From assembly GCA_011046145.1 (NCBI GenBank), contig DSBA01000020.1, positions 1 through 37,607 of the forward strand: a stretch of 37,607 bases of DNA, given 5' to 3'. The translations under genes were made by a program, and so were the position numbers. The stretch comes from Candidatus Uhrbacteria bacterium. GTDB lineage: Bacteria; Patescibacteriota; Patescibacteriia; CAIXNZ01. This document shows positions 320 through 21,246 of the stretch, in pieces (positions within the stretch are counted from its first letter, which is position 1; each line of letters opens with the position of its first letter). A model generated the notes under the pieces. That model ran no database searches, was not told where the DNA came from, and saw nothing but the letters and a program-made list of their open reading frames with translations.

Positions 320-350
320 TTGACAGGATTTTACAGCCACTAGATATAGT
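320..350 (+). promoter_or_regulatory. Candidate sigma70-type promoter of the nrdR-nrdD unit
   Basis: TTGACA at 320-325 is followed by an A/T-rich -10 candidate region, TAGATATAGT (341-350). The exact -10 hexamer is ambiguous, with 15-19 nt spacing options. Confidence 0.4.
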
Positions 351-385
351 GTTAAAATAAAAACAGGAAATACTATATATAGTAT
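337..385. promoter_or_regulatory. Two tandem NrdR boxes (operators)
   Basis: Box 1 is CCACTAGATATAGTGT (337-352). Box 2 is ATACTATATATAGTAT (370-385), a perfect 16-bp palindrome. Both fit the published NrdR-box consensus acaCwAtATaTwGtgt. They lie 33 bp start-to-start, and box 1 overlaps the -10 region. Confidence 0.7.
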
Positions 386-446: not shown

Positions 447-941
447 ATGAAATGCCCTGTTTGCAATTATAAAGAAACAAAGGTTGTTGATTCCCGGGTG
501 GCTTCAGATGAAATTACAATCAGACGGCGCCGGGAATGCTTAAAATGCGGTTTTCGTTTCAGCACATATGAGCAAGTTGAATTGCTAGAATTAATGGTTA
601 TAAAGCGCGATGGCCGCAAGGAAAGTTATAGCCGGGAAAAATTAGCGCAGGGTTTAAAAAAAGCTTTTGAAAAAAGGCCTATTGGCTCGGAATCATTTAG
701 AATTTTGGTCAATAAAATTGAAAAAAATATCCAGACCATAAAAAGAAACGAAATTAAGAGCCAGGAAATCGGAGAAATGGCCATGAAAGAGCTGAAGAAA
801 AAAGATCCGGTGGCGTATATAAGATTTGCTTCTGTTTACCGCGCTTTTAAAGATTTGGCAACGTTTCAAAAAGAAATTAATGATGTTTTTAAAAAGAAAA
901 GGAAAAACATTAAAAAGATTCAGAAAGGGAAAAACGGTTAA
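447..941 (+). CDS. nrdR: Transcriptional repressor NrdR (zinc ribbon + ATP-cone)
   Basis: The ORF track gives 414..941. I start it at the ATG at 447 (MKCPVCNYKETKVVDSRV...ECLKCGFRF), which gives the canonical NrdR CxxC...CxxC N-terminus followed by an ATP-cone. The 414 start adds 11 non-conserved residues. Confidence 0.9.
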   Translation: MKCPVCNYKETKVVDSRVASDEITIRRRRECLKCGFRFSTYEQVELLELMVIKRDGRKESYSREKLAQGLKKAFEKRPIGSESFRILVNKIEKNIQTIKRNEIKSQEIGEMAMKELKKKDPVAYIRFASVYRAFKDLATFQKEINDVFKKKRKNIKKIQKGKNG

Positions 942-981: not shown

Positions 982-3030
982 ATGGGTAAGATTTCTAAAA
1001 TAAAAAAAAGAGACGATCGGATAGTTGATTATGATTTAAGCAAAATTGAAACTGCCATTTATAAGGCCATGGAAGCTGTTGGCGATCCTAACAAGAAAAA
1101 AGCTCAAAAACTGGCTTTGGCCGTAGAAAAAGAATTAAATAAGAGGTTTCATGAAAGAAGCATTCCCGCGGTGGAGGAAATACAAGATATAGTAGAAGTT
1201 GTTTTGATTAAAAATAATCAGATTCAGCCGGCAAAGGCTTATATTTTGTATCGCGATCAGCATGCCAGGATTAGAGATTTTCAGTCATTGATTGACTCTG
1301 ACTCATTGATGGAAGGCTATTTAGTGCAAAGCGACTGGCGGGTCAAAGAAAATTCCAATATGGCTTACTCTTTGCAAGGCCTGAATAATCATGTCGCTTC
1401 TTCTGTTTCAGCTCATTATTGGCTTAATAAAGTTTATCCGCAAGAAGTTAGAGACGCTCATTCTAATGCTGATATGCATATCCATGATTTGCAGACATTA
1501 GCGGCTTATTGTTGCGGTTGGGATTTACGTGATTTGCTGATGAAAGGATTCGGAGGCGTTATGGGAAAAGTCAGTTCCAAACCACCCAAGCATTTTAGGA
1601 CAGCCTTGGGGCAGATTGTTAATTTTTTTTATACTTTGCAGGGCGAGACAGCAGGCGCCCAGGCTTTTTCCAGTTTTGATTCTTATTTAGCCCCTTTTAT
1701 TGCTTATGATAATTTAGAATATAAAGATGTTAAGCAATGCATTCAGGAATTTTTGTTTAATATGAATGTGCCTACCCGGGTTGGATTCCAGACTCCGTTT
1801 ACAAATATTACAATGGATTTGGTTATTCCTGAAATGATGAAAGCAGAACCGGTTATAATCGGCGGCAAATTTCAGGACAAAACTTATAAAGAATTTCAAA
1901 AAGAAATGGATATGCTTAACCTGGCTTTTACTGAAGTCATGGCAGCTGGTGATGCGAGCGGCAGGGTATTTACCTTTCCTATACCGACTTATAATATTAC
2001 TAAAGATTTTAATTGGCAAAGCGAAGTAGTTGATAAGATTATGGAAATGACAGCAAAATACGGCATCCCTTATTTTTCCAATTTTGTCAATTCTGATATG
2101 AAGCCAGAAGACGCTCGCAGCATGTGTTGTCGCTTAAGATTGGATAACAGAGAATTAAGAAAAAGAGGCGGCGGTCTTTTTGCTGCCAATCCATTGACAG
2201 GCTCGATTGGCGTGGTGACTATTAATTTGCCTCGTTTGGGCTACTTGGCCAAAGATAAAGAAGAATTTTTTGAAAAATTGGAAAAGATTATGCAGATAGC
2301 TAAATCCAGCCTGGAAATTAAAAGAAAAGTCATAGAAAAATTTACAGATGAAGGGCTTTATCCTTACTCCCGCTATTATTTGGAAGATATAAAATCTAAA
2401 TTTGGCGAATATTGGAAAAATCATTTTAATACAATTGGCATTAATGGCATGAATGAAGCGGTTTTAAATTTATTGGGTGAAGAAATTACCCAGCCTGAAG
2501 GCCATAAATTTGCCATAGAAGTTCTTGATTTTATGAGAGAAACATTGATGAATTACCAAAACGAAACCAATAATTTATATAATTTGGAAGCTACTCCGGC
2601 AGAAGGTACTGCTTACCGTTTTGCTAAAGCTGATAAGCAAAAATTCCCTGATATTATTGTGGCAAATGAAAAAGCTTATCGGGAGCAAGGAGCTGATCCT
2701 TTTTATACTAATTCTTCGCAGCTGCCGGTTAATTATACTGATGATATTTTTGAAGCGCTTGACTTGCAGGATGACTTGCAGACGCGCTATACTGGAGGTA
2801 CGGTTATGCACGGCTTTATTGGCGAAAAAATGCCTTCTGCAAAATCAACTAAAAAGCTGATTAAAAAAATAGCTGAAAATTATCATTTGCCTTATTTTAC
2901 CATTACACCGACTTTTTCTGTTTGTCCTGTTCATGGCTACATTGAAGGCGAACATTTTTTCTGCCCTAAATGCGACGAGGAAATAGGTTATTCTGAAAAA
3001 GCCCAGCAAGCACAATTTCAAAACAGCTAA
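982..3030 (+). CDS. nrdD: Anaerobic (class III) ribonucleoside-triphosphate reductase NrdD, large fragment lacking the glycyl-radical segment
   Basis: It has an N-terminal ATP-cone (IKKRDDRIVDYDLSKIETAI), the thiyl-radical loop SMCCRLRLD and a C-terminal zinc site (CPVHG...FFCPKC). The ORF ends directly after the zinc ribbon. Confidence 0.9.
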   Translation: MGKISKIKKRDDRIVDYDLSKIETAIYKAMEAVGDPNKKKAQKLALAVEKELNKRFHERSIPAVEEIQDIVEVVLIKNNQIQPAKAYILYRDQHARIRDFQSLIDSDSLMEGYLVQSDWRVKENSNMAYSLQGLNNHVASSVSAHYWLNKVYPQEVRDAHSNADMHIHDLQTLAAYCCGWDLRDLLMKGFGGVMGKVSSKPPKHFRTALGQIVNFFYTLQGETAGAQAFSSFDSYLAPFIAYDNLEYKDVKQCIQEFLFNMNVPTRVGFQTPFTNITMDLVIPEMMKAEPVIIGGKFQDKTYKEFQKEMDMLNLAFTEVMAAGDASGRVFTFPIPTYNITKDFNWQSEVVDKIMEMTAKYGIPYFSNFVNSDMKPEDARSMCCRLRLDNRELRKRGGGLFAANPLTGSIGVVTINLPRLGYLAKDKEEFFEKLEKIMQIAKSSLEIKRKVIEKFTDEGLYPYSRYYLEDIKSKFGEYWKNHFNTIGINGMNEAVLNLLGEEITQPEGHKFAIEVLDFMRETLMNYQNETNNLYNLEATPAEGTAYRFAKADKQKFPDIIVANEKAYREQGADPFYTNSSQLPVNYTDDIFEALDLQDDLQTRYTGGTVMHGFIGEKMPSAKSTKKLIKKIAENYHLPYFTITPTFSVCPVHGYIEGEHFFCPKCDEEIGYSEKAQQAQFQNS

Positions 3031-3090
3031 TAAATTATTTTTATATAAAGCTATCTATTTTTTTACAAATAGATAAGCGCAGGGAGGAGT

Positions 3091-3231
3091 ATGAATACAA
3101 AAATGCAAAGGACACCTTGTGAGGTGTATTCCCGGATAGTCGGCTATATCCGCCCTGTTAGCCAGTGGAATAAAGGCAAGAGAGCTGAATTTTCAGAAAG
3201 GAAAGAGTTTAACAAACAGTTAGCCGAGTAA
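3091..3231 (+). CDS. Free-standing NrdD C-terminal glycyl-radical peptide (46 aa)
   Basis: It translates to MNTKMQRTPCEVYSRIVGYIRPVSQWNKGKRAEFSERKEFNKQLAE*. This carries the NrdD radical-loop signature (YSR-x-x-GY-x-RPV..WN.GK..E). It is in the same frame as nrdD but behind four in-frame stops (3028, 3031, 3046, 3070). GGGAGGAG lies at 3082-3089, with tight spacing to the ATG; an alternative ATG is at 3103. The ORF is below the ORF-track size cut-off. Confidence 0.7.
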   Translation: MNTKMQRTPCEVYSRIVGYIRPVSQWNKGKRAEFSERKEFNKQLAE

Positions 3232-3324
3232 TGTTCTTTAAAGATCTCATCTTGAAGCATTTTTTGCCAAGTATTTTAAAAAGTTTCAAGGAGAAAAAAA
3301 ATGAGTAAATAGTTCTTTAAAATC

Positions 3325-3437
3325 AAACCAGTCTCCGAGCTATTTTTTAAAGGTTATAGTTAGTCCATAAGTTCGTCATTTTTTGGGCGGATTTACGGGC
3401 TAACTATATTTGGATAGTTTGCAGAGACTGGTTTTTT
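3325..3437 (+). terminator. Extended imperfect hairpin (~110 nt) with a 3' U-tract; candidate intrinsic terminator of the nrdR-nrdD unit or a structured RNA
   Basis: There are three nested helices: 3325-3335/3424-3434 (11 bp), 3337-3343/3414-3420 (7 bp, 2 G.U) and 3355-3366/3397-3408 (12 bp, 1 G.U). A T-run ending at 3437 follows. Confidence 0.45.
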
Positions 3438-3554
3438 AATCTACAATTAATAATACGAATCTGCGAATATAAACATCCAAAGATAATATTTTAGATTTTT
3501 ATTGGCCTTATATAGAAGCTTTTATCAGAGAGTATAAGATTTTTTTTATTTTTT

Positions 3555-3563
3555 TGATATAAT
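3555..3563 (+). promoter_or_regulatory. Extended -10 promoter candidate for nrdG
   Basis: TGATATAAT lies at 3555-3563, and the same 9-mer recurs at 12384-12392 upstream of the 12409 gene. AT-rich background makes chance hits likely. Confidence 0.3.
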
Positions 3564-3590
3564 AACATTAGTATATTAGTAATTAATTAG

Positions 3591-3625
3591 TTCCGCCGAA
3601 GGCGGAATGCCGCCACAAGCGGCAT
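3591..3625. repeat. Two abutting GC-rich hairpins immediately upstream of the nrdG start
   Basis: The hairpins are TTCCGCC-GAA-GGCGGAA (3591-3607) and ATGCCGC-CACAA-GCGGCAT (3607-3625). They form a GC island in an AT-rich spacer, 14 nt before the ATG at 3639. Confidence 0.6.
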
Positions 3626-3638
3626 AAATTAGTATCCT

Positions 3639-4334
3639 ATGATTCGCATTGGCGGTTTGCAAAAAATAACCCTGCTTGATTTCCCTGATGCTTTGGCAGC
3701 TATTGTTTTTGTTGCTGGCTGTAATTTTCGCTGCGGTTATTGCCACAATCCTGATCTAGTTGAAATTAAAACAGGAAAAAAACTTATCAGTGAAAAAGAG
3801 GTTTTAGATTTTTTAGCCAACAGAAAAAAATTGTTGGAAGGGGTTTGCATTAGCGGCGGCGAGCCCTTGATTTATAAGGATTTAGATAAGTTTTTGGTTA
3901 AGATTAAAAATTTAGGATATTTAATAAAATTAGACACTAATGGCTACGAGCCTTTGGCTTTAAAAAAATTATTGGCAAGGAATTTGCTTGATTATATGGC
4001 CATGGATATTAAAGGTTCTTTGGACAAATATTCTTTGATTGCCGGAGTTAAAGTTGATGTTAATAAAATAAAACAGAGCCTTGGTTTGGTTATGTCCAGC
4101 GGCTTGCCATATGAATTCAGGACAACGGTTTTGCCCAAATTTCATGATTTGGCAGAAATAGAAAAAATTGCTAAAATGATAAAAGGTGCGGAGAATTATT
4201 ATTTGCAGCAATTTAGCAGCCAAAAAACTTACAAATCTGATTTTCAAACTGAAAAAAAATTTACTCGGCAGGAATTGGAAACAATGCGTCAGCTCGCTTT
4301 AAAATACGTTAATAAATGCCAAATAAGGGGGTGA
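3639..4334 (+). CDS. nrdG: Anaerobic RNR activating enzyme NrdG (radical SAM)
   Basis: It has the CNFRCGYCHNP radical-SAM cluster motif near the N-terminus. Size (231 aa) and position next to nrdD also fit. It ends with TGA. Confidence 0.85.
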   Translation: MIRIGGLQKITLLDFPDALAAIVFVAGCNFRCGYCHNPDLVEIKTGKKLISEKEVLDFLANRKKLLEGVCISGGEPLIYKDLDKFLVKIKNLGYLIKLDTNGYEPLALKKLLARNLLDYMAMDIKGSLDKYSLIAGVKVDVNKIKQSLGLVMSSGLPYEFRTTVLPKFHDLAEIEKIAKMIKGAENYYLQQFSSQKTYKSDFQTEKKFTRQELETMRQLALKYVNKCQIRG

Positions 4335-13296: not shown

Positions 13297-16200
13297 ATGT
13301 TTAAGCCTGATAAAACAAAATTACAGAAAGCGGTAATTTTTCTTATGGCTGTAATTTTTGTTGGCAGTAATTTTTATTTTTTATTATTGGCAGGTTTAAA
13401 GCCAGTACAGGCAACTTTTCCAGTAGTTGATGTGCCGCAGGCGACTTTACAATCAATGTGGTATGCTGGCGATAAAGCTGAAAGCATTTTGCAAAAGGTT
13501 TGGGATGAAGTAGTGGCTATTTTTTTCAAAAATATTTTAGGCACAATGGCTAATATGATTGCCCAGCAATCAGCCAAATGGGTTGCCAGCGGAGGCAAAG
13601 GCGGCGCTCCGCAATTTATCAGCGACCCTAATTTTTGGCAGGATTTTGCTGATAAAGCAGTAGGGGATTTTATCCAGACAACAATGAAAAATTTAACAGG
13701 ACTTGATGTTTGTACTTTGGATCCGCAATTGGCTATAAATTTAGCCATAAATATTCCCTTTTTTCCGGATTGGTCAGGCGTTTATGAGCCGGATTGCAGC
13801 TGGACCCAGTTAAGGAGCCACTGGGAAGAGATTGGCCAAAGAAGGTTTGAAGATTTTATTTCTTTTGATTATGGCATTGGCGCTGGCGGGACTTTTGATG
13901 AAAATGTCGGACGTTTAAATACAGCTGTTGCTCAAGATATTAGTTTAAGAAGATGGCCTATTGAATTGGTAGGACATGGTTATATAATAGGTTGTGACAC
14001 GACTGCAATAAGCGGTGGTTTGGCTACTTGCACTGAACCGCCTGTACAAACGGACCTTTTGAGTTCAGCCAGGGCATTAGATTCTTATACTGCTACTTTG
14101 CGGGCTGATGTTGAGAAAATTTTAACCCATAAAGTGGCTGATACCCCGGCTGATTTAAGTGTTGGGCGTTATCCCATAACACCAGAAAACATGCCGATTA
14201 TCAGAGAAGCTTGGTTAAAGAATATTAATCCTTATATTAGTGATTTGCACCAGATAGCTGATTTATACAGCCGCTGTACAGGCAAAACAGCCTGCGCTTT
14301 AATGCAAATGCCGCCAGATCCACCATTTTGCAAGGCTGCTTTAGACAAGATTAATCTTAAGTCGTTTCTTTGCCCGATTGATGACGGCACAGATGATGAC
14401 GGCACAGATGATGACGGCACAGAAAGCCGTAATCAGGCAACAGCTTTAATTTACCAGACAGAGTTTAATCAAAAAGCCGGGCAAGTCGCAAATATCGCCA
14501 ATGCTATCAAAGGCGGCTTTGAATATTTAAAAACCCAAATAGAACAAAATTTCAAGCCAGAATTATTAGAAGGCAGCGTGGCTTATAATGCGCAACTGGC
14601 AGCCGGCCTTTTTGATCCCAGCGCTAATGAATTTAATGCTTATGAAACACTTGTCAGGCAAATGGCGGATATAAGCTGGAGTGAAGCAATGAATGCTCGC
14701 TTGCAAGCAATGATTGATCAGGGCTGGCAATCAACCACAGACCGCATTGCAGGCTATATTAGGACGCCTTCAAACTTGATCAGGGCCAGGGCAGAAAAAC
14801 AATTGGCTGAAGGCACTGACAGCATTTATGCTTACCACACCAAAAATATCGCGGCTGATGCTTTGGGTGTTTTTTTGCAGACGCTATGGAATGAATTAGC
14901 TTTGCAATTATTAGATATGCTTAATCCTGGCTATTCTGCAGAGACCAGAAGGCATTTATTGACTGTTCCAGGAGGCAAAGAAGCTTTGGAAAGTTTTAGC
15001 GTGATGTCATGGAATCCTTTTGAAGAGCTGATTGTTTCTGAAGAAGGAATTGACAGATATATTCAAAGAGTTGCCCAAAAATTTACAGTTAATTTGTCTT
15101 TTAAGGATGTAAATTTGCTGGCTGATTTCCAATTAAATATCAAAGGCGAGGCCAATCCTAATCTTTATAATAATGTTATTGACCAAAATTTTGCCATTGC
15201 CATTAATGATAAATTGACTATCAAGCAAGCGCTTGATTCTGGCAAATTAGTAGGCGATTATACTTTTTCCTATTCTCCTGCCCGCCCCGGCACATATAAT
15301 TTGGCTAATATCAGAAAGTTAAGAAAAGCCCGGGTAGTGCCTCTGGGTTTGGAACTGGCTGTCCAGTTAATCAGGGATTGCAATCACCGCAAAACTTTTA
15401 ATAATGGTCAGTATGCTGGTTTTCAAGATATTAATGACGTAAATCCGTATGGATACGACAATGTAAGCGATCCTTTTAATTCCCAAAGATTGCAAAATTG
15501 TTTGTTTAAGCCTTATTCAGCTGGCCAGGAGTTAAAAGATGTGAGAGATTATAATACCAGAAAAATGAATGAAGTGGCAGGGGCAACTTTAGCTGATGTG
15601 GTTGATGGTTTTGATAAGGCTGGTTCTGGTATTTGCGGCGATTTTGACGAAAATGAATCGCCTTTTTGCAATTTAGTTAATCCTAATTGGGTTTTAAAAA
15701 TACCGACTACTTTTTGCGCTTTGCAGACAACAAACGAGCCATTTGGCGAACTTTTAACCACCAATAGCAATAGCCAAAGGCAATCGCGCTGCCCTGATTT
15801 TGCTAGTTGTTTAAATGAAGATGGTAAAGGCAGCTGTATAAATGAAGATTATGGCTTTTGCGTCAAAGAAAAAAATGTCTGGCAGTTTGCGACTGATTCT
15901 TGTCCAGAAGAATTTAACAGCTGCCGCACTTATAGTTTGACAAGGTCAGGAGAAAGGACCTCGGTTTCCTATTTAAAAAATACTTTAAGCGGTAGCGATA
16001 TCTGCGGTCCTTATAATGCAGGCTGCAGCTGGTATTCTACGCAGACAGATTTAGCTGGTTTTTGGCAAAACGATGCCAGGATTTATTTTAACCGTTATGT
16101 TGAAGCTTGCGACAGGCAAAATGAAGGTTGCAGTGAATTTGTTTTATATCGCAATCCTGCCAATAACTTAGTCTTTGACTCAAGTTTTGAATATACTCCG

Positions 16201-19200
16201 GAAGGCAATTTTCCAGCTGGCTGGGATTTAAGATTAAAGCAGCGCGTTGATTTGCCGGCTGATTGCCAAGGGACTTTGACTGAAATTTGCAATTATTATC
16301 CTTATGATAATCAATCAGAATGTTTGATTAATAATGGGACTTGGTACGGCTATTGCGATGACGGCGAAAGCTGGAGCCAGGCAGAATGCTTGGACAAGGG
16401 ACAAAATTGGGAATTTGTTTGCCTTAATGCGATTAATAATCAAGCTGATAAAGCAGATTGCGAGGCTGGGGGAGGCGAGTATGAGTATTTTTGCACCAAC
16501 AGCATTTTAAAATATAATCTTTGCCAGAATCCCCAATTTACAGGCGATGACGCGCAAGAACAATGCTTGGCTAATGGCGGTACTTGGCAGCAAGAGTGTG
16601 AAATAGGCGGCAGCGCCAGCAGCGAACTGACCACTTTAGAAGATTGCATGGCTAATGATGGCAGTTGGCGCGAATTTTGCCAAGGGGCCAGATTATATGA
16701 TTTTACCAAACAAAGCTGCAATAATCTTTTGGGTGAATGGCGCGGCGAAGGGCCTTTTAGTGATTTGGCTTTTGTTTCCAAAGACGCAACCAATGTTTAT
16801 CAGGGGTTAAGCAAGCTCCAGGTTAATATAGGAGCTGTGCCTTTTGGCGAGGAATTAGTTTTAGTTTATAAAAGCCATTTTAATGATGAAACAAAAACTT
16901 TAACCAAAGCTGGCGATGCTTATACTGCCACAGCTTATTTTAAATCTAATCAGGTATTGAGCCAGCCCATTACGTTTAATTTGGCAAAAATGAGACAGAC
17001 GCAAAGTGAGCTGAATAGCAAGAGGTTTTTTATTGACCAAAATTATACCAGGGCAGACAGCACTATAATTACTGGAGCTGGAGGCACAGAGCTTGATATT
17101 AGGATTTATTTGCCGGGTGGCGAAGAAGGAGCCTTGGTTTATCTGGATGCAATTGGCTTATCCATTAATTCTTTGAATCAAGTCAGGAATTTTGATTTTA
17201 TTACGCCTTATGCTGATTATGAAGCTAATAATAAATTGTATTATAAAAATCCGCCTGAAAGGCTGAATTGCCATGGTTATGGCCCAGGTGATCCGGCTCC
17301 TCGGCTTGATATTGCGCCTTTAACCAAAGAAGCTTGTGAAGGCGTTGGCGGTTATTGGGATGAAGGTTTAATTTACAGAAATACGGTTGACTGCTATAAA
17401 TATGAACCCGATGATCCTATCTGCAATAATTTTATGAAAGTTTGCGAAGCAGAAGAAGTCGGCTGCCAGCTTTTTACGCCCTTAAACGGCGATCCTCAAG
17501 TGCCGGGCGTGGTAAGCATTACTGATTATTGCCCGGCAGAATGCGTGGGTTATGAAACTTATAAACAAGAGCCGGCTTTATATGAGCCAGAGCCTGATCC
17601 TTTATTCCATTATTTTATACCTGAAACAGCCCGTTCTTGTTCCTTGGCAGAAGTCGGTTGCGCCCAGTTTACTAATTTAGATGAAGTGGCTCGGGGCGGT
17701 GAGGGTATTGGCTATTATACTTATTTAAGGCAATGCATCAAGCCTAATCTTGGCTTGGGTGAAAAGACTTTTTTTACCTGGCAAGGTTCAGCAACAGGCT
17801 CTCCGCAATTGCTTAAATATGAATTTCAGCAAGATCCGGTTACTGGCGCGCCCAAAACAATTGACGGTTCAGGCGATTGCCGTTTGACTTTGAGCGAATA
17901 TGATTTAAACTGCGTTAATTTTTTTGACAGCGCTGGCATTAATTATCACCGCGATATCCGCAAAATCGTTTCAGTTTCAGATGATTGTTCGCCGTTCAGG
18001 AAAACAGAGTCAACCCAGGCAAATTGTCTGGCAACCAATGGCCGTTGGCAGGAAGATCTTCAGGCTTGCATTTATGATGCTATTCCAGCTGAAGCTATTT
18101 CTTGTTCTGCGGAAGCTAATGGCTGCAGAACTTTTATAGGCAATCGGGGCAATAATGTTTATGTGCAGATTTTTGACACTTTTGAAGGTATTGAAGGCAC
18201 TTGGGGATGGTATGCTGGCTCTGACGGCACTAGCGCAGAAGGACTGGCCAGAGTAGGAGAGTCAGTGCAAGTCGGCGGAAATTCTTTATTTGTTTCCTCT
18301 CCAGTTTCAGCTATTCATAAACCTGTAAACATTCAGAAAAATAATTTGTATACCCTTTCTTTTTGGGCCAAGACAAATGATCCAGCTGGCGAAGTCATTA
18401 CTGCAAAATTCAGCACAGCTGTGCCTGATGCCCAGGCTTCTACCCTGGAAGAATTTGCTACTTTAGAAAACAATCTGCAACTGACAAACGAATGGCGCAA
18501 TTATACCTTGGGTCCGGTTTTGGTCAGTTGGGATAATGTGGAAAATAACAGCCTGGTTTTTGATTCATTGGATAGCGAGGTTTATTTTGACAATATTTTA
18601 TTAAGGGTAGTGAGAGACAATGTCTATGTGGTTAAAAACAGCTGGTTTACGCCGGATAGCTGCGACCGCAACATTTTTGGCCAGACAGAAGAAGGCGCCA
18701 TGCTTGGCTGCCAAGCTTATCAGGATTTGCTGGGCCAGACTCACAACCTTAAATCTTTTACCAATTTGTGCCGTGAAAGCGCAATAGGCTGCCAGATTTT
18801 AATTGACACTAAAAATTCAACTAATGCCAATAAACAAATATTCAATGATGACAATCCATCGCCTTTGGATGATTATATTGTGCTGCGAGACGAATTAGTC
18901 ACTTTGGTGGTCAGTGATAATTTTATTTGTTCCAAAACAGATAAAGGCTGTCAAAAATTTGGAAAACCGGTTTACCAAGCTGTTTTGCCCACGTTTGATG
19001 ACGTATACTTGAAAAATGATCCGGATAAATATATTAATGTGCCTAATGCCATAATGTGCAATGAGGAATCTTTGGGCTGTTTGGAATTAATTAATGATGA
19101 GGGCAATGCTGAACATTTTAAAATTGATCCGACCAAGCTTTGCCAGTTTAAAACCAGCACAGTAAGCGGTGAAAATATTAATGGCTGGTTTAAAAAAGGC

Positions 19201-21246
19201 AGTTTGGATTTGGGCTGTACAGCCTTGGATTTTAATACGCCTGCGCCTTGCGAAGCTGGCGGCGGCGGCTGGAGCGCAAAATATAACCAATGCGTCTTGA
19301 TTTTGCATGAAATTAAAGATCAGGCAAATTGCAATCTTAAAAAAGGAGAATGGCTGGCAGCTGATCTGGCAGCTGATTCTGTCTGTTTGGCTTATCCTTT
19401 TACTATTTATAAAGTTGAAGAAGCTAATAAATATAAGGGTTTTGTAGGCGAATGCGACAGCCGATGGAGCGGCTGCACAGAATTTGTTGATATTAATCCA
19501 AACTTTGTTTTTAATGGCAGTTTTGAATCAATTGATCCAACAGGCATGCTTTCCAGTTGGCAGACAAAAGCAGCCAGTTCTGGCAGGCAGAGAATAGACA
19601 CTGATAATTCTAAATTAGGCAATCAGGCTGTCAAGCTGATTAAAACAACAAGCCAAAATTGCCCTAGTACTTATTTATATCCTAATTCGGGCTGCAGCCT
19701 GGATGAGTCTATTGTGCCAAGCTATGCTATTTCCCAAAATATTGTCAGGCTGGAAAAAGGCAGGACTTATAAAATATCTTTTTATTATCGCGTGCCAGAA
19801 GAGGCTAAAGGCAGAGGCGATAATTGCCCATTACCAGAAGTTGTTTTTGAATTTAATTCCCTTGTTGCTGGAGCAGAAAAAGGCCCGCTTTATGTTTTTG
19901 CCCCGGAAAGCGAGTGGAAAAAAGTTGAAGTTTTATATACTGTGCCGGCTGATTCAGCAGAATTTTTACAGGATTTTGAATTGGTTTTATACGCGCCGCT
20001 TAATAAAAATATTGCGGCTGACATAGGCAATTGTCCTGATTCTTTTGTGCTTTATGACCAGGTTGAAATTAAAGACAATACTGAAGACAGTTATTTTGTG
20101 ATTGACCAGGGCTCTAATCTGGACAGGAGCAGTTGTACTTCTGTAAATTGGCAGGCTGGCTGTGTTCAGTTTATTAATACTGACAGAGGCAGGGTAGAAT
20201 TATTAAAAGTTAAAGCTGACAGGAATTGCGCGGAATGGGCAATGTGCACCAGTTATTGCAGTAATCCGATTCATAAAACAGAAGGTGATTGCATAGCAGA
20301 TCTAGCCGGGGAGACATGGAATCTTGATGCTTGTACGGAAATCAGCTTGTGTTCGGAGAAAAAAGCCGGAGAATGCGTTAAATTCACAGAGCCTAAAGAT
20401 AATGTGCGCTATGATTTGAATAACGAGCCTTTAATAGTAAAAAGAATTAGCAATTATGGCGATCAGACAGGCTATATTTACCGCTTTGGGGCTGGTCCTT
20501 TAAGCGCCCTTACCCAATGGCGGGCAGGTGATTATTCTGGTTATACTATTCCAGAAAGGTTCCCGCTAGAAGTTGAACTGGAAAAAGGATTTGAAATTTA
20601 CCAAAGAGAAAATAATCTGGGGGATTCAGATGATATGCGTTTTGTGGCGCCGGTTTGCAAGGTTTTTCCTGCCCAGGATTCACCCATGCCATATGATTTA
20701 ATTTTATCGCCTGATTATAATAATCTTTTAAGCCTTTATAGCCAAAATATGTCTTTGAGCGATTTAGGCAACCTTTGTAATTATGAAGAAGCCCAGGCTT
20801 ATGGGACAAAAACTTATTTTCCAAGAGGCGCTGTTGGTGTTGACAAAATAGATAAAATCTGCACTTCGCCTCAAGACATGAAAGGAAAAGTTTGCAGCAC
20901 AGACGAGGAATGTAAAGGAAAGGTCAGGGGCATTACTGGAGCTGATGGCGAATGCAGGCCGATTGAGGAAGTAAAAGAGTTTTTGGGTTTAGAAGGCATG
21001 TGTTTGGAATTTGATACTTTAAATCCGATTTATGACGGTATTTATAAGGATGTTGGCAAAGATTGCATACCTGATCCAGACAGCGGAATAGAAATTTGTA
21101 CTGGCCCTGATTACCAGCCTTATGCTTGTCTGACTTATTTTCCTTTTATGATAGATTTATGCCCGCTTTATAAAAATGAAACAAGTTGCAAGCTGAATGC
21201 AAATTGCAATTGGCTAGGCGGGGACGGACCATGCATTAGAAAATAA
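13297..21246 (+). CDS. Giant (2649 aa) secreted or N-terminally anchored Cys-rich surface protein with three CBM-like beta-sandwich segments
   Basis: The ORF is uninterrupted. It has an N-terminal hydrophobic segment with an AxA-like site (KPVQA/TF). A [small]-C-x-x-[F/Y/L] motif recurs 12 times, alongside arrays of C-x4-G-x-W mini-modules and three segments with CBM4/9-like edges. There is no C-terminal anchor. Confidence 0.8.
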   Translation: MFKPDKTKLQKAVIFLMAVIFVGSNFYFLLLAGLKPVQATFPVVDVPQATLQSMWYAGDKAESILQKVWDEVVAIFFKNILGTMANMIAQQSAKWVASGGKGGAPQFISDPNFWQDFADKAVGDFIQTTMKNLTGLDVCTLDPQLAINLAINIPFFPDWSGVYEPDCSWTQLRSHWEEIGQRRFEDFISFDYGIGAGGTFDENVGRLNTAVAQDISLRRWPIELVGHGYIIGCDTTAISGGLATCTEPPVQTDLLSSARALDSYTATLRADVEKILTHKVADTPADLSVGRYPITPENMPIIREAWLKNINPYISDLHQIADLYSRCTGKTACALMQMPPDPPFCKAALDKINLKSFLCPIDDGTDDDGTDDDGTESRNQATALIYQTEFNQKAGQVANIANAIKGGFEYLKTQIEQNFKPELLEGSVAYNAQLAAGLFDPSANEFNAYETLVRQMADISWSEAMNARLQAMIDQGWQSTTDRIAGYIRTPSNLIRARAEKQLAEGTDSIYAYHTKNIAADALGVFLQTLWNELALQLLDMLNPGYSAETRRHLLTVPGGKEALESFSVMSWNPFEELIVSEEGIDRYIQRVAQKFTVNLSFKDVNLLADFQLNIKGEANPNLYNNVIDQNFAIAINDKLTIKQALDSGKLVGDYTFSYSPARPGTYNLANIRKLRKARVVPLGLELAVQLIRDCNHRKTFNNGQYAGFQDINDVNPYGYDNVSDPFNSQRLQNCLFKPYSAGQELKDVRDYNTRKMNEVAGATLADVVDGFDKAGSGICGDFDENESPFCNLVNPNWVLKIPTTFCALQTTNEPFGELLTTNSNSQRQSRCPDFASCLNEDGKGSCINEDYGFCVKEKNVWQFATDSCPEEFNSCRTYSLTRSGERTSVSYLKNTLSGSDICGPYNAGCSWYSTQTDLAGFWQNDARIYFNRYVEACDRQNEGCSEFVLYRNPANNLVFDSSFEYTPEGNFPAGWDLRLKQRVDLPADCQGTLTEICNYYPYDNQSECLINNGTWYGYCDDGESWSQAECLDKGQNWEFVCLNAINNQADKADCEAGGGEYEYFCTNSILKYNLCQNPQFTGDDAQEQCLANGGTWQQECEIGGSASSELTTLEDCMANDGSWREFCQGARLYDFTKQSCNNLLGEWRGEGPFSDLAFVSKDATNVYQGLSKLQVNIGAVPFGEELVLVYKSHFNDETKTLTKAGDAYTATAYFKSNQVLSQPITFNLAKMRQTQSELNSKRFFIDQNYTRADSTIITGAGGTELDIRIYLPGGEEGALVYLDAIGLSINSLNQVRNFDFITPYADYEANNKLYYKNPPERLNCHGYGPGDPAPRLDIAPLTKEACEGVGGYWDEGLIYRNTVDCYKYEPDDPICNNFMKVCEAEEVGCQLFTPLNGDPQVPGVVSITDYCPAECVGYETYKQEPALYEPEPDPLFHYFIPETARSCSLAEVGCAQFTNLDEVARGGEGIGYYTYLRQCIKPNLGLGEKTFFTWQGSATGSPQLLKYEFQQDPVTGAPKTIDGSGDCRLTLSEYDLNCVNFFDSAGINYHRDIRKIVSVSDDCSPFRKTESTQANCLATNGRWQEDLQACIYDAIPAEAISCSAEANGCRTFIGNRGNNVYVQIFDTFEGIEGTWGWYAGSDGTSAEGLARVGESVQVGGNSLFVSSPVSAIHKPVNIQKNNLYTLSFWAKTNDPAGEVITAKFSTAVPDAQASTLEEFATLENNLQLTNEWRNYTLGPVLVSWDNVENNSLVFDSLDSEVYFDNILLRVVRDNVYVVKNSWFTPDSCDRNIFGQTEEGAMLGCQAYQDLLGQTHNLKSFTNLCRESAIGCQILIDTKNSTNANKQIFNDDNPSPLDDYIVLRDELVTLVVSDNFICSKTDKGCQKFGKPVYQAVLPTFDDVYLKNDPDKYINVPNAIMCNEESLGCLELINDEGNAEHFKIDPTKLCQFKTSTVSGENINGWFKKGSLDLGCTALDFNTPAPCEAGGGGWSAKYNQCVLILHEIKDQANCNLKKGEWLAADLAADSVCLAYPFTIYKVEEANKYKGFVGECDSRWSGCTEFVDINPNFVFNGSFESIDPTGMLSSWQTKAASSGRQRIDTDNSKLGNQAVKLIKTTSQNCPSTYLYPNSGCSLDESIVPSYAISQNIVRLEKGRTYKISFYYRVPEEAKGRGDNCPLPEVVFEFNSLVAGAEKGPLYVFAPESEWKKVEVLYTVPADSAEFLQDFELVLYAPLNKNIAADIGNCPDSFVLYDQVEIKDNTEDSYFVIDQGSNLDRSSCTSVNWQAGCVQFINTDRGRVELLKVKADRNCAEWAMCTSYCSNPIHKTEGDCIADLAGETWNLDACTEISLCSEKKAGECVKFTEPKDNVRYDLNNEPLIVKRISNYGDQTGYIYRFGAGPLSALTQWRAGDYSGYTIPERFPLEVELEKGFEIYQRENNLGDSDDMRFVAPVCKVFPAQDSPMPYDLILSPDYNNLLSLYSQNMSLSDLGNLCNYEEAQAYGTKTYFPRGAVGVDKIDKICTSPQDMKGKVCSTDEECKGKVRGITGADGECRPIEEVKEFLGLEGMCLEFDTLNPIYDGIYKDVGKDCIPDPDSGIEICTGPDYQPYACLTYFPFMIDLCPLYKNETSCKLNANCNWLGGDGPCIRK
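14380..14424 (+). repeat. In-frame tandem repeat, 3 x 15 nt (DDGTD)3
   Basis: The unit gatgacggcacagat appears twice, then gatgacggcacagaa. The first two copies are identical. Confidence 0.9.
16264..16752 (+). other. Array of ~6 short disulfide-loop modules (C-x4-G-x-W...C) nested inside the first CBM-like segment
   Basis: The modules are SECLINNGTWYGYC, AECLDKGQNWEFVC, ADCEAGGGEYEYFC, EQCLANGGTWQQEC, EDCMANDGSWREFC and QSCNNLLGEWRGEG. The flanks (16162-16260 and 16756-17160) look like the two halves of one beta-sandwich. Confidence 0.5.
18160..18612 (+). other. CBM4/9-like (galactose-binding-like) beta-sandwich segment 2
   Basis: It starts FDTFEGIEGTWGWYAG, includes NNLYTLSFWAKT and NEWRNYTL, and ends VYFDNILL. 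These are typical edge strands of CBM-type jelly rolls. Confidence 0.5.
19495..20078 (+). other. CBM4/9-like beta-sandwich segment 3
   Basis: It runs NFVFNGSFESIDPTGMLSSWQT, GRTYKISFYYRV, EWKKVEVLYTV and VLYDQVEI. Confidence 0.5.

Follow-up and report, generated by a model that had tools for sequence, protein, structure and literature searches.

The window analysed here is a stretch of 37,607 nt (positions 1 to 37,607, forward strand) of contig DSBA01000020.1 from Candidatus Uhrbacteria bacterium (GCA_011046145.1), whose genome of 0.95 Mb is 96% complete and is distributed over 100 contigs. Its nrdD gene, together with a small open reading frame (ORF) located 60 nt downstream, very probably encodes a functional two-chain class III (anaerobic) ribonucleotide reductase (RNR), in which the radical glycine would be carried by a subunit of 5 kDa, as judged from sequence comparison and structural modelling. 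The large subunit of 682 amino acids (aa; 982..3030) terminates at 3028-3030, behind its zinc site, and the glycyl-radical loop is encoded by a separate ORF of 46 codons (3091..3231), both at the coordinates reported in a first-pass annotation of this DNA. The genes nrdR, nrdD-large and nrdD-small adjoin on one strand, and the parts of the locus from the promoter candidate upstream of nrdR to nrdG are located on the plus strand.

The two nrdD reading frames

The large subunit matches the Pfam profile NRDD from position 1 to 531 of 562 (E 4e-191) and the NCBIfam model NF006126 with 1081 bits (cut-off 548). It is composed of an ATP-cone (residues 6-95 according to Pfam), an NxN-flap-like motif (KENSNM) and an alpha/beta barrel with the finger loop SMCCRLRL, which includes C382/C383 (nt 2125-2130); the barrel and the finger loop that characterize NrdD proteins of the PF13597, TIGR02487 and NF006126 class are therefore both found in this ORF. 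The zinc-binding motif C648-P-V-H651 ... C661-P-K-C664 (2923..2973) lies whole within the large subunit and aligns with the C-x-x-C/H ... C-P-x-C segments of the enzymes of T. maritima (4COI) and P. copri (8P23), and neither alignment A3 (50 sequences) nor alignment A4 (71 sequences) shows any substitution of the four residues of this predicted site (C648, H651, C661 and C664). The chain stops at profile position 531, and a glycyl-radical loop is absent from this polypeptide. According to alignment to solved structures, the connector between the last zinc cysteine and the strand preceding the glycyl loop spans 3-5 residues in one-piece enzymes (CPVCG-x3-VDEYMRIVGY in T. maritima, CPKCGS-x5-LQRITGY in P. 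copri), and it is within this connector that the cut is situated, leaving the zinc site (C, H, C, C) entire on the large chain. Cys10 of the small subunit was considered as a fourth zinc ligand, but this does not apply in general: C, H, C and C are present on the large chain, and the position is often occupied by V, A or T in stand-alone homologues, so that Cys10 is not a required ligand.

Behind the zinc motif, the large subunit ends with a tail of 18 residues (DEEIGYSEKAQQAQFQNS, 2974..3027), as is seen in split forms. In the 14 genomes of the family to which the window belongs and in other split lineages, the tail of the large chain shows a conserved D-x-E-[IM]-G-Y-x-E motif and is variable in its remainder. 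The notion that 'EIGY' in this tail represents a degenerate copy of the radical loop, left behind by fission through tandem duplication, is a weak speculation prompted by a coincidence of the MAFFT alignment, as the tail after G-Y-x-E is not conserved.

The small ORF encodes 46 aa (MNTKMQRTPCEVYSRIVGYIRPVSQWNKGKRAEFSERKEFNKQLAE) and matches the NRDD profile from position 531 to 562 (E 1e-10, above the Pfam cut-off). As both ORFs meet at the same profile position, no NrdD segment is missing or duplicated. The small subunit comprises the glycyl-radical loop RIVGY, in which G18 is encoded by GGC at 3142-3144, followed by a C-terminal helix. A Pfam scan of this ORF at E values up to 0.1 returned PF13597 (NRDD) and one weak unrelated match, but not Gly_radical (PF01228), and the NCBIfam matches are exclusively to NrdD models. 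Predicted peptides of the two-piece NrdD are TPCEVYSR and IVGYIRPVSQWNK (tryptic) and AQQAQFQNS at the C-terminus of the large chain. The TAA at 3028 is followed, within the intercistronic spacer of 60 nt (3031..3090), by three further in-frame stops (TAA 3031, TAA 3046 and TAG 3070), and the spacer also harbours a 9-bp hairpin (3052-3075) and the Shine-Dalgarno-like purine run GGGAGGAG (3082..3089) that precedes the small ORF; the four stops, the hairpin and the purine run were all present as initially described.

None of the 14 family genomes departs from a length of exactly 46 aa for the small ORF; they also conserve the N-terminus MNT[KR], and in each of them a G-rich element is located 3-8 nt upstream of the first ATG, which is the conserved start. 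An earlier doubt about the spacing between ribosome-binding site and start, with an alternative ATG at 3103, was thereby removed, as the corresponding methionine is missing in four relatives (L014, L020, L022 and L023). The pairwise ratio of non-synonymous to synonymous substitution rates (dN/dS) is 0.05 for the small ORF versus 0.066 for the body of the large one (last 300 codons before the zinc motif). Four stops inside a normally single ORF and a draft genome of 100 contigs might raise the suspicion that the gene is decaying or that the break is an artefact of sequencing or assembly. In our view this is extremely improbable: dozens of independent assemblies share the architecture, with the break in each of the three relative frames, both pieces show a dN/dS of about 0.05, the catalytic motifs are intact, and no other RNR was found in any of the 14 family genomes. 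The argument of the first-pass annotation against a single sequencing error is strengthened by this recurrence, which rules out chance or a local error, and the decay that it had also envisaged is contradicted by the intact two-ORF layout which the relatives keep under strong purifying selection. As far as sequence can tell, decay and artefact are excluded.

Relative to the large ORF, the small ORF of the relatives is read at frame offsets of 0, 1 or 2, behind spacers of 18-199 nt and with its own methionine and G-rich site each time, and the shared frame in the window is therefore a coincidence. These variable offsets also bear on the alternative that the two ORFs are expressed as a single chain, either by translational bypass (as in T4 gene 60), by read-through of the stops, or by RNA or protein splicing. 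Such a mechanism would be compatible with the common frame and the hairpin in the gap of the window, with the identity of the residue (Ser) encoded by the last codon of the large ORF (AGC) and by the codon before the small ATG (AGT), and with the existence of intein-bearing NrdD homologues elsewhere (P0224, P0249, P0310). It is nevertheless very unlikely, given that the offsets vary and that the potential take-off and landing codons mismatch in relatives (CAA/GTT in L009, AGC/ATT in L010, AAT/AGT in L011), that four stops of two kinds are not explained by a single reassigned codon, and that the non-homologous gap, at ~130 nt, could not accommodate a group I or II intron and has no Rfam match. 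Moreover, with 18 aa at the tail and about 9 aa at the head, the extensions are far below the size of split-intein halves, and conservation of the MNT[KR] N-terminus together with its ribosome-binding site marks a translation start.

Matches to PF02867 (large subunit of class I or II), TIGR02505 (monomeric class II enzyme) or PF00268 (small subunit of class I), which would indicate another RNR, were not obtained in the source genome, nor was PF02867 matched in any of the 14 family genomes, and the concern that another intact RNR might render nrdD dispensable was thus not substantiated. The NRDD profile detects only the two pieces in the genome, and neither a second glycyl-radical loop nor a full-length NrdD. 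Downstream of the small ORF, nrdG (3639..4334) encodes the radical S-adenosylmethionine activase (Pfam Radical_SAM, E 2e-19, and Fer4_12), and an nrdG-like ORF is present in the same position in most relatives, so that an activase is encoded nearby. One might also suppose that the large chain works without the small ORF by means of another radical source and that the small ORF is a regulatory element or a spare part, since radical-domain proteins are known that stand alone with no barrel gene in their vicinity, such as the 144-aa protein of the ANMV-1 virus. We regard this as highly improbable, as no other glycyl-radical loop is detected in the genome with the NRDD profile, the retained finger loop and the neighbouring nrdG make sense only in combination with a glycyl radical, and the small ORF always adjoins a truncated nrdD at the junctions inspected. 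Delivery of the radical in trans by the peptide, as initially proposed, is supported by the conserved intact two-ORF layout, by purifying selection and by the status of the enzyme as sole RNR, which make it the probable function of the small chain.

Predicted structure and proposed mechanism

For structure prediction with AlphaFold2 (AF2), the read-through translation of both ORFs, which share a frame in the window, was used as a covalent fusion. With alignment A4 containing 70 one-piece homologues, which guided the model, a mean predicted local distance difference test value (pLDDT) of 86 and a predicted template-modelling score (pTM) of 0.81 were obtained in this second run. The core of the small ORF (fusion residues 711-749) reached pLDDT values of 79-91 (means of 10-residue blocks) and was modelled as a beta-hairpin (714-719 / 722-725) whose tip holds G18 and which leads into a helix, and the read-through linker was disordered. 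The top Foldseek matches of the model are class III RNRs, with template-modelling (TM) scores of 0.75-0.76 (normalised to target length) for 8P2S, 4COL and 1H7A. Structure prediction of the 682-aa and 46-aa pair had been suggested as a check in the first-pass annotation, and the fold predicted for their fusion is compatible with a class III RNR.

Several points weigh against a two-chain enzyme. In the first AF2 run, performed with alignment A3 of mostly split homologues, residues 669-749 showed pLDDT values below 50; this failure at the C-terminus is explained by MAFFT having placed the radical loops of one-piece enzymes on the 'IGY' of the tail, which emptied the columns of the small ORF. The second model shows that the fusion is compatible with canonical docking, which does not imply association of two free chains. 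The two-chain enzyme also requires that a glycyl radical is stable on a non-covalently held peptide of 5 kDa. Finally, the probable symbiosis of the organism might allow import of deoxynucleosides, and the status as sole RNR therefore argues less strongly for essentiality than it does in free-living cells. With respect to the detachable loop, it was reported that the radical domain of P. copri NrdD is mobile and becomes invisible by cryo-electron microscopy once dATP binds to the ATP-cone (PMC11226230). As this domain is mobile even in a one-piece enzyme, a detachable loop is not far-fetched, and by analogy allosteric inhibition might even release the small chain.

We propose that a two-chain class III RNR would operate as follows. 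The genes nrdR, nrdD-large and nrdD-small would be co-transcribed from an NrdR-controlled promoter, and the 46-residue chain would be translated from its own ATG and ribosome-binding site. The large chain would supply the ATP-cone, the catalytic barrel with the thiyl-radical finger loop and the complete zinc site. The small chain would dock non-covalently in the barrel in the same way as the covalent loop of one-piece enzymes, placing G18 beside C382/C383, and NrdG would install the radical on G18, whereupon catalysis would presumably proceed.

Distribution and regulatory elements

The nearest named relatives of the NrdD of the window belong to Candidatus Buchananbacteria, Falkowbacteria and other Patescibacteria. 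The interruption is conserved in the related nrdD loci: all 14 family genomes, which represent 8 genera, contain the split form, with NRDD matches covering positions 1 to about 530 and about 531-562. Within the class, about ten further families include genomes with the same pair of matches, and a one-piece gene occurs in four genomes. A genuine NrdD is present in 114 of 401 genomes sampled evenly across the phylum, about 72 being split and about 42 in one piece; this tally was made by hand from the match table, and genes were counted as split if the large match ended at 516-534 or if in-frame stops were located there. The split form therefore appears to be the majority form in NrdD-bearing Patescibacteria, and it recurs in some archaea and a few other bacteria.

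Free-standing homologues of 40-78 aa number at least 209 in the protein collection. Among the best 80 genome matches (species representatives), 25 were flagged as small ORFs, and 22 of these represent a short ORF behind a truncated NrdD. These 22 derive from other Patescibacteria, from metagenome-assembled genomes labelled Woesearchaeota, Micrarchaeota, Nanobdellota and Thermoplasmatales, and from Leptospirales, Anaerolineae and Hippea. The remaining three of the 25 comprise an overlap or possible frameshift (L041), a one-piece gene (L092) and a form that is longer and includes a zinc ribbon of its own (L085). No cultured organism among the best 80 genome matches has the split form; the three cultured isolates in this list (Odoribacter, Gabonibacter and Puteibacter) possess one-piece genes.

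Besides the common two-piece layout, a number of other arrangements were encountered. In L085 (labelled Saccharibacteria, OZ246412.1), a stand-alone frame of ~97 aa contains a zinc-ribbon-like motif (CHDCGKE...CDSC) fused to the glycyl loop, and the tail of a truncated NrdD was not found in the 1.5 kb upstream of it; this locus suggests a second cut point ahead of the zinc site. In G400, a split and a one-piece nrdD are located side by side (G400:C1:136203-139666), and in G136 a one-piece nrdD is followed by an extra small match to profile positions 511-562 (G136:C2:30559-30777). The NrdD homologues P0224, P0249, P0310, P0315 and P0328 have a length of 1000-1070 aa and contain intein or homing-endonuclease domains (PF14528, PF14890), and in G096, G232, G294, G322 and G349 the match to the NRDD profile is broken near positions 157 and 263 within one long open frame; some such genes have both inteins and the C-terminal split. 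A search of the proteins in phage records gave three matches, of which two were inspected. Methanobacterium virus PhiF1 carries a full-length gene, and the ANMV-1 virus (KP703175.1, L112:2680-3114; uncultured archaea) encodes a lone protein of 144 aa with a zinc ribbon (CHDCG...CPKC) and an NrdD-type glycyl-radical loop (CEMYSRIVGY), which is annotated as full anaerobic RNR although no barrel gene is located nearby.

A stem-loop of 9-12 bp situated a few nucleotides 5' of the ribosome-binding site of the small ORF is present in all 14 family genomes. In the window, its 9-bp core (3052-3060 / 3067-3075) extends to 3050..3078 with one bulge and ends ~4 nt before the ribosome-binding site. When 10 distinct sequences were aligned, 94.5% of the cells pair versus 82% after shuffling (0/500), 7 of 11 pairs are changed on both sides, slid controls pair to 36-53% and a count with 13 sequences agrees, with the reservation that using each predicted hairpin as anchor of the alignment somewhat favours structure. 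The sequence of the stem drifts from CTATCTATTT via GCTGTCGGTTT to TCCGTCC, and such free change favours an RNA structure over a protein-bound operator. A function as NrdR operator was rejected, since the stem varies while pairing is kept and does not fit the NrdR-box pattern. The stem-loop could set the relative stability or the translation of the small cistron.

The first gene of the cluster, nrdR (447..941), encodes the repressor of RNR genes (Pfam Zn_ribbon_NrdR, E 2e-19, and ATP-cone, E 3e-23). Its probable start is the ATG of MKCPVC; the listed ORF begins with TTG at 414, and the Zn_ribbon_NrdR match starts at residue 12 of this ORF. Upstream of nrdR, a consensus scan revealed a candidate sigma-70-like promoter at 330..358 (TTTACA-17-TAAAAT with TG, 10/12 matches), which overlaps the first of two NrdR-box-like palindromes located at 337-352 (CCACTAGATATAGTGT) and 370-385 (ATACTATATATAGTAT), 33 nt apart from centre to centre. 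We take ACACWATATATWGTGT to be the consensus of the NrdR box that serves in the NrdR regulon. With at most 3 mismatches, this pattern has two matches in the whole 37.6-kb window, both at 337-385, compared to a chance expectation of 0.39, and at least two matches were obtained in 4 of 100 shuffles. The position of the boxes at the promoter suggests, on sequence grounds, an autoregulated operon of nrdR, nrdD and the small ORF. The pattern scan of the window detected no NrdR box before the small ORF or nrdG, and a dedicated promoter of the small ORF was not found by the consensus scan at 3000-3090.

An AT-rich box resembling AAAATATTTATATAA lies directly 5' of the spacer hairpin in the window (3031-3050) and in L010, L013, L015, L020, L022 and L023, and is kept even where the spacer measures about 190 nt (L022, L023). 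It could serve the small cistron as a -10-like element or as a signal for processing, or it could simply be AT-rich spacer. Rfam models gave only three distant tRNAs at the gathering threshold, and a relaxed search of 2900-3700 yielded only a chance snoRNA-like match. The 400 nt that separate the small ORF from nrdG (3229-3645) have a folding energy of -113 versus -75 kcal/mol for shuffled sequences (z -8.4) and contain a long imperfect hairpin (3325-3437) followed by a T-run, which together may form a large terminator; the hairpin is not a repeated element, because it is unique in the genome. Two GC-rich hairpins (3591-3626) are located just 5' of the nrdG start, for which a clear ribosome-binding site is lacking, and in the closest relative the gap between the small ORF and nrdG is 179 nt only. 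Elsewhere in the window, an ORF of 2649 aa is followed by one of 962 aa (13297-21246).

Comparison with known systems and implications

By sequence and predicted fold, the split enzyme belongs to the same family as the one-piece NrdD/NrdG systems of phage T4 (1H79), T. maritima (4COI/4U3E), P. copri (8P23) and S. thermophilus (9D3X), with which it has in common the ATP-cone, the NxN-flap-like motif, the barrel, the MCCR finger loop, the zinc site, the RxxGY loop and nrdG. In all solved or described one-piece enzymes, the radical loop forms the covalent C-terminus, whereas in the split form it is a separate product of 46 aa and the large chain bears an additional conserved tail. Small polypeptides encoded beside the catalytic gene are also found in other glycyl-radical enzymes, namely the beta and gamma subunits of benzylsuccinate synthase and the gamma subunit of 4-hydroxyphenylacetate decarboxylase (reviewed in PMC13450708). 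In those enzymes, however, the radical glycine resides on the large chain and the small subunits are accessory iron-sulphur proteins, whereas in the split NrdD the glycine resides on the small chain. Among RNRs, Crona et al. 2015 are said to have described NrdJa/NrdJb as a catalytic subunit distributed over two adjacent ORFs, with a C-terminal functional element on the second. NrdJa/NrdJb differs from the split NrdD in that it belongs to the B12-dependent class and in that its second piece is large and carries the reducing cysteine tail rather than the radical cofactor. The paper on this split class II RNR of Pseudomonas aeruginosa (PMC4520616) is cited in PMC9669993.

The closest parallel is provided by GrcA/YfiD (and T4 Y06I), which are small free-standing glycyl-radical-loop proteins that insert into a large barrel enzyme, and the 46-aa ORF, which has a start and a ribosome-binding site to itself, likewise encodes a small free-standing protein with a glycyl-radical loop, predicted to insert in the same manner. 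Both have a connection with the sensitivity of the radical site to oxygen (PMC13450708, PMC8683613), and according to a review of June 2026, spare-part glycyl-radical proteins are known only for formate lyases (PMC13450708). The comparison with GrcA/YfiD drawn in the first-pass annotation is valid as an analogy but does not extend to homology or to function as a spare: GrcA is homologous to the C-terminus of pyruvate formate-lyase, which it rescues although this enzyme has its own loop, whereas the 46-aa peptide is a homologue of NrdD only, unrelated to pyruvate formate-lyase or GrcA, and provides the sole loop. It is obligate because the large subunit lacks a loop of its own and the genome lacks a full-length NrdD.

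Beyond the two-chain architecture itself, two interpretations of the split can be distinguished. The 46-aa protein might act as an exchangeable radical cartridge, in that oxygen damage, by which glycyl-radical enzymes are cleaved at the radical glycine, would be confined to the small chain and a fresh copy charged by NrdG would re-arm the 682-aa body; we consider this tentative and on the whole unlikely. Alternatively, the fission may be neutral, i.e. the enzyme works in two pieces without any benefit, the split of a tolerant surface connector was fixed by drift in small populations and persists solely because neither half is dispensable, and the small protein is bound tightly at 1:1 throughout the lifetime of the enzyme and is not exchanged. 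This interpretation, which is possible if somewhat doubtful, competes only with that of an exchangeable cartridge and agrees with a functional two-chain class III RNR. Patescibacteria have reduced genomes, for which drift is plausible, and the break is located in a short connector outside the barrel. In the tree of large subunits, those of the window's family form one fully split clade (support 100/100), and split and one-piece forms are otherwise interspersed, with at least 3 changes forced by well-supported branches and 6 by parsimony, which argues that the state flips easily. The one-piece form of L005/P0212 (CPKCDEDD-M-SPQKLERQKCEVYSR) looks like a re-fusion that retained the methionine of the small ORF. 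On the other hand, most of the NrdD-bearing genomes sampled from the phylum have the split, and it is also found in unrelated lineages, which exceeds what is expected of a rare neutral accident, and the split forms share the D-x-E-[IM]-G-Y-x-E tail and, in the window's family, the covarying stem-loop. If the cartridge interpretation were true, this stem-loop would raise the output of the small cistron above that of the large chain, lone viral radical-domain genes such as that of ANMV-1 would provide host enzymes with cartridges, and the repair principle of GrcA would be built into the sole enzyme that produces deoxynucleoside triphosphates in many ultra-small bacteria and archaea.

A description of a split class III NrdD was not found in the searchable full-text literature, including reviews of RNR insertions/extensions and of RNR evolution, which is in agreement with the initial statement that none was known, and the two-piece NrdD is apparently a widespread, hitherto undescribed variant of class III RNR. 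In current annotations, the large ORFs are designated as ordinary ribonucleoside-triphosphate reductases and the small ORFs are unnamed, hypothetical or given the name of the full enzyme; because of such naming, pipelines may miscall the gene as complete or as broken. Glycyl-radical enzymes have been described with the radical on the C-terminus of the catalytic chain, GrcA of pyruvate formate-lyase being the one known exception. A natural two-piece NrdD would offer a system in which the exit of the radical domain from the barrel and its re-entry, the access of NrdG to the glycine and the repair of oxygen damage by subunit swap could be addressed.

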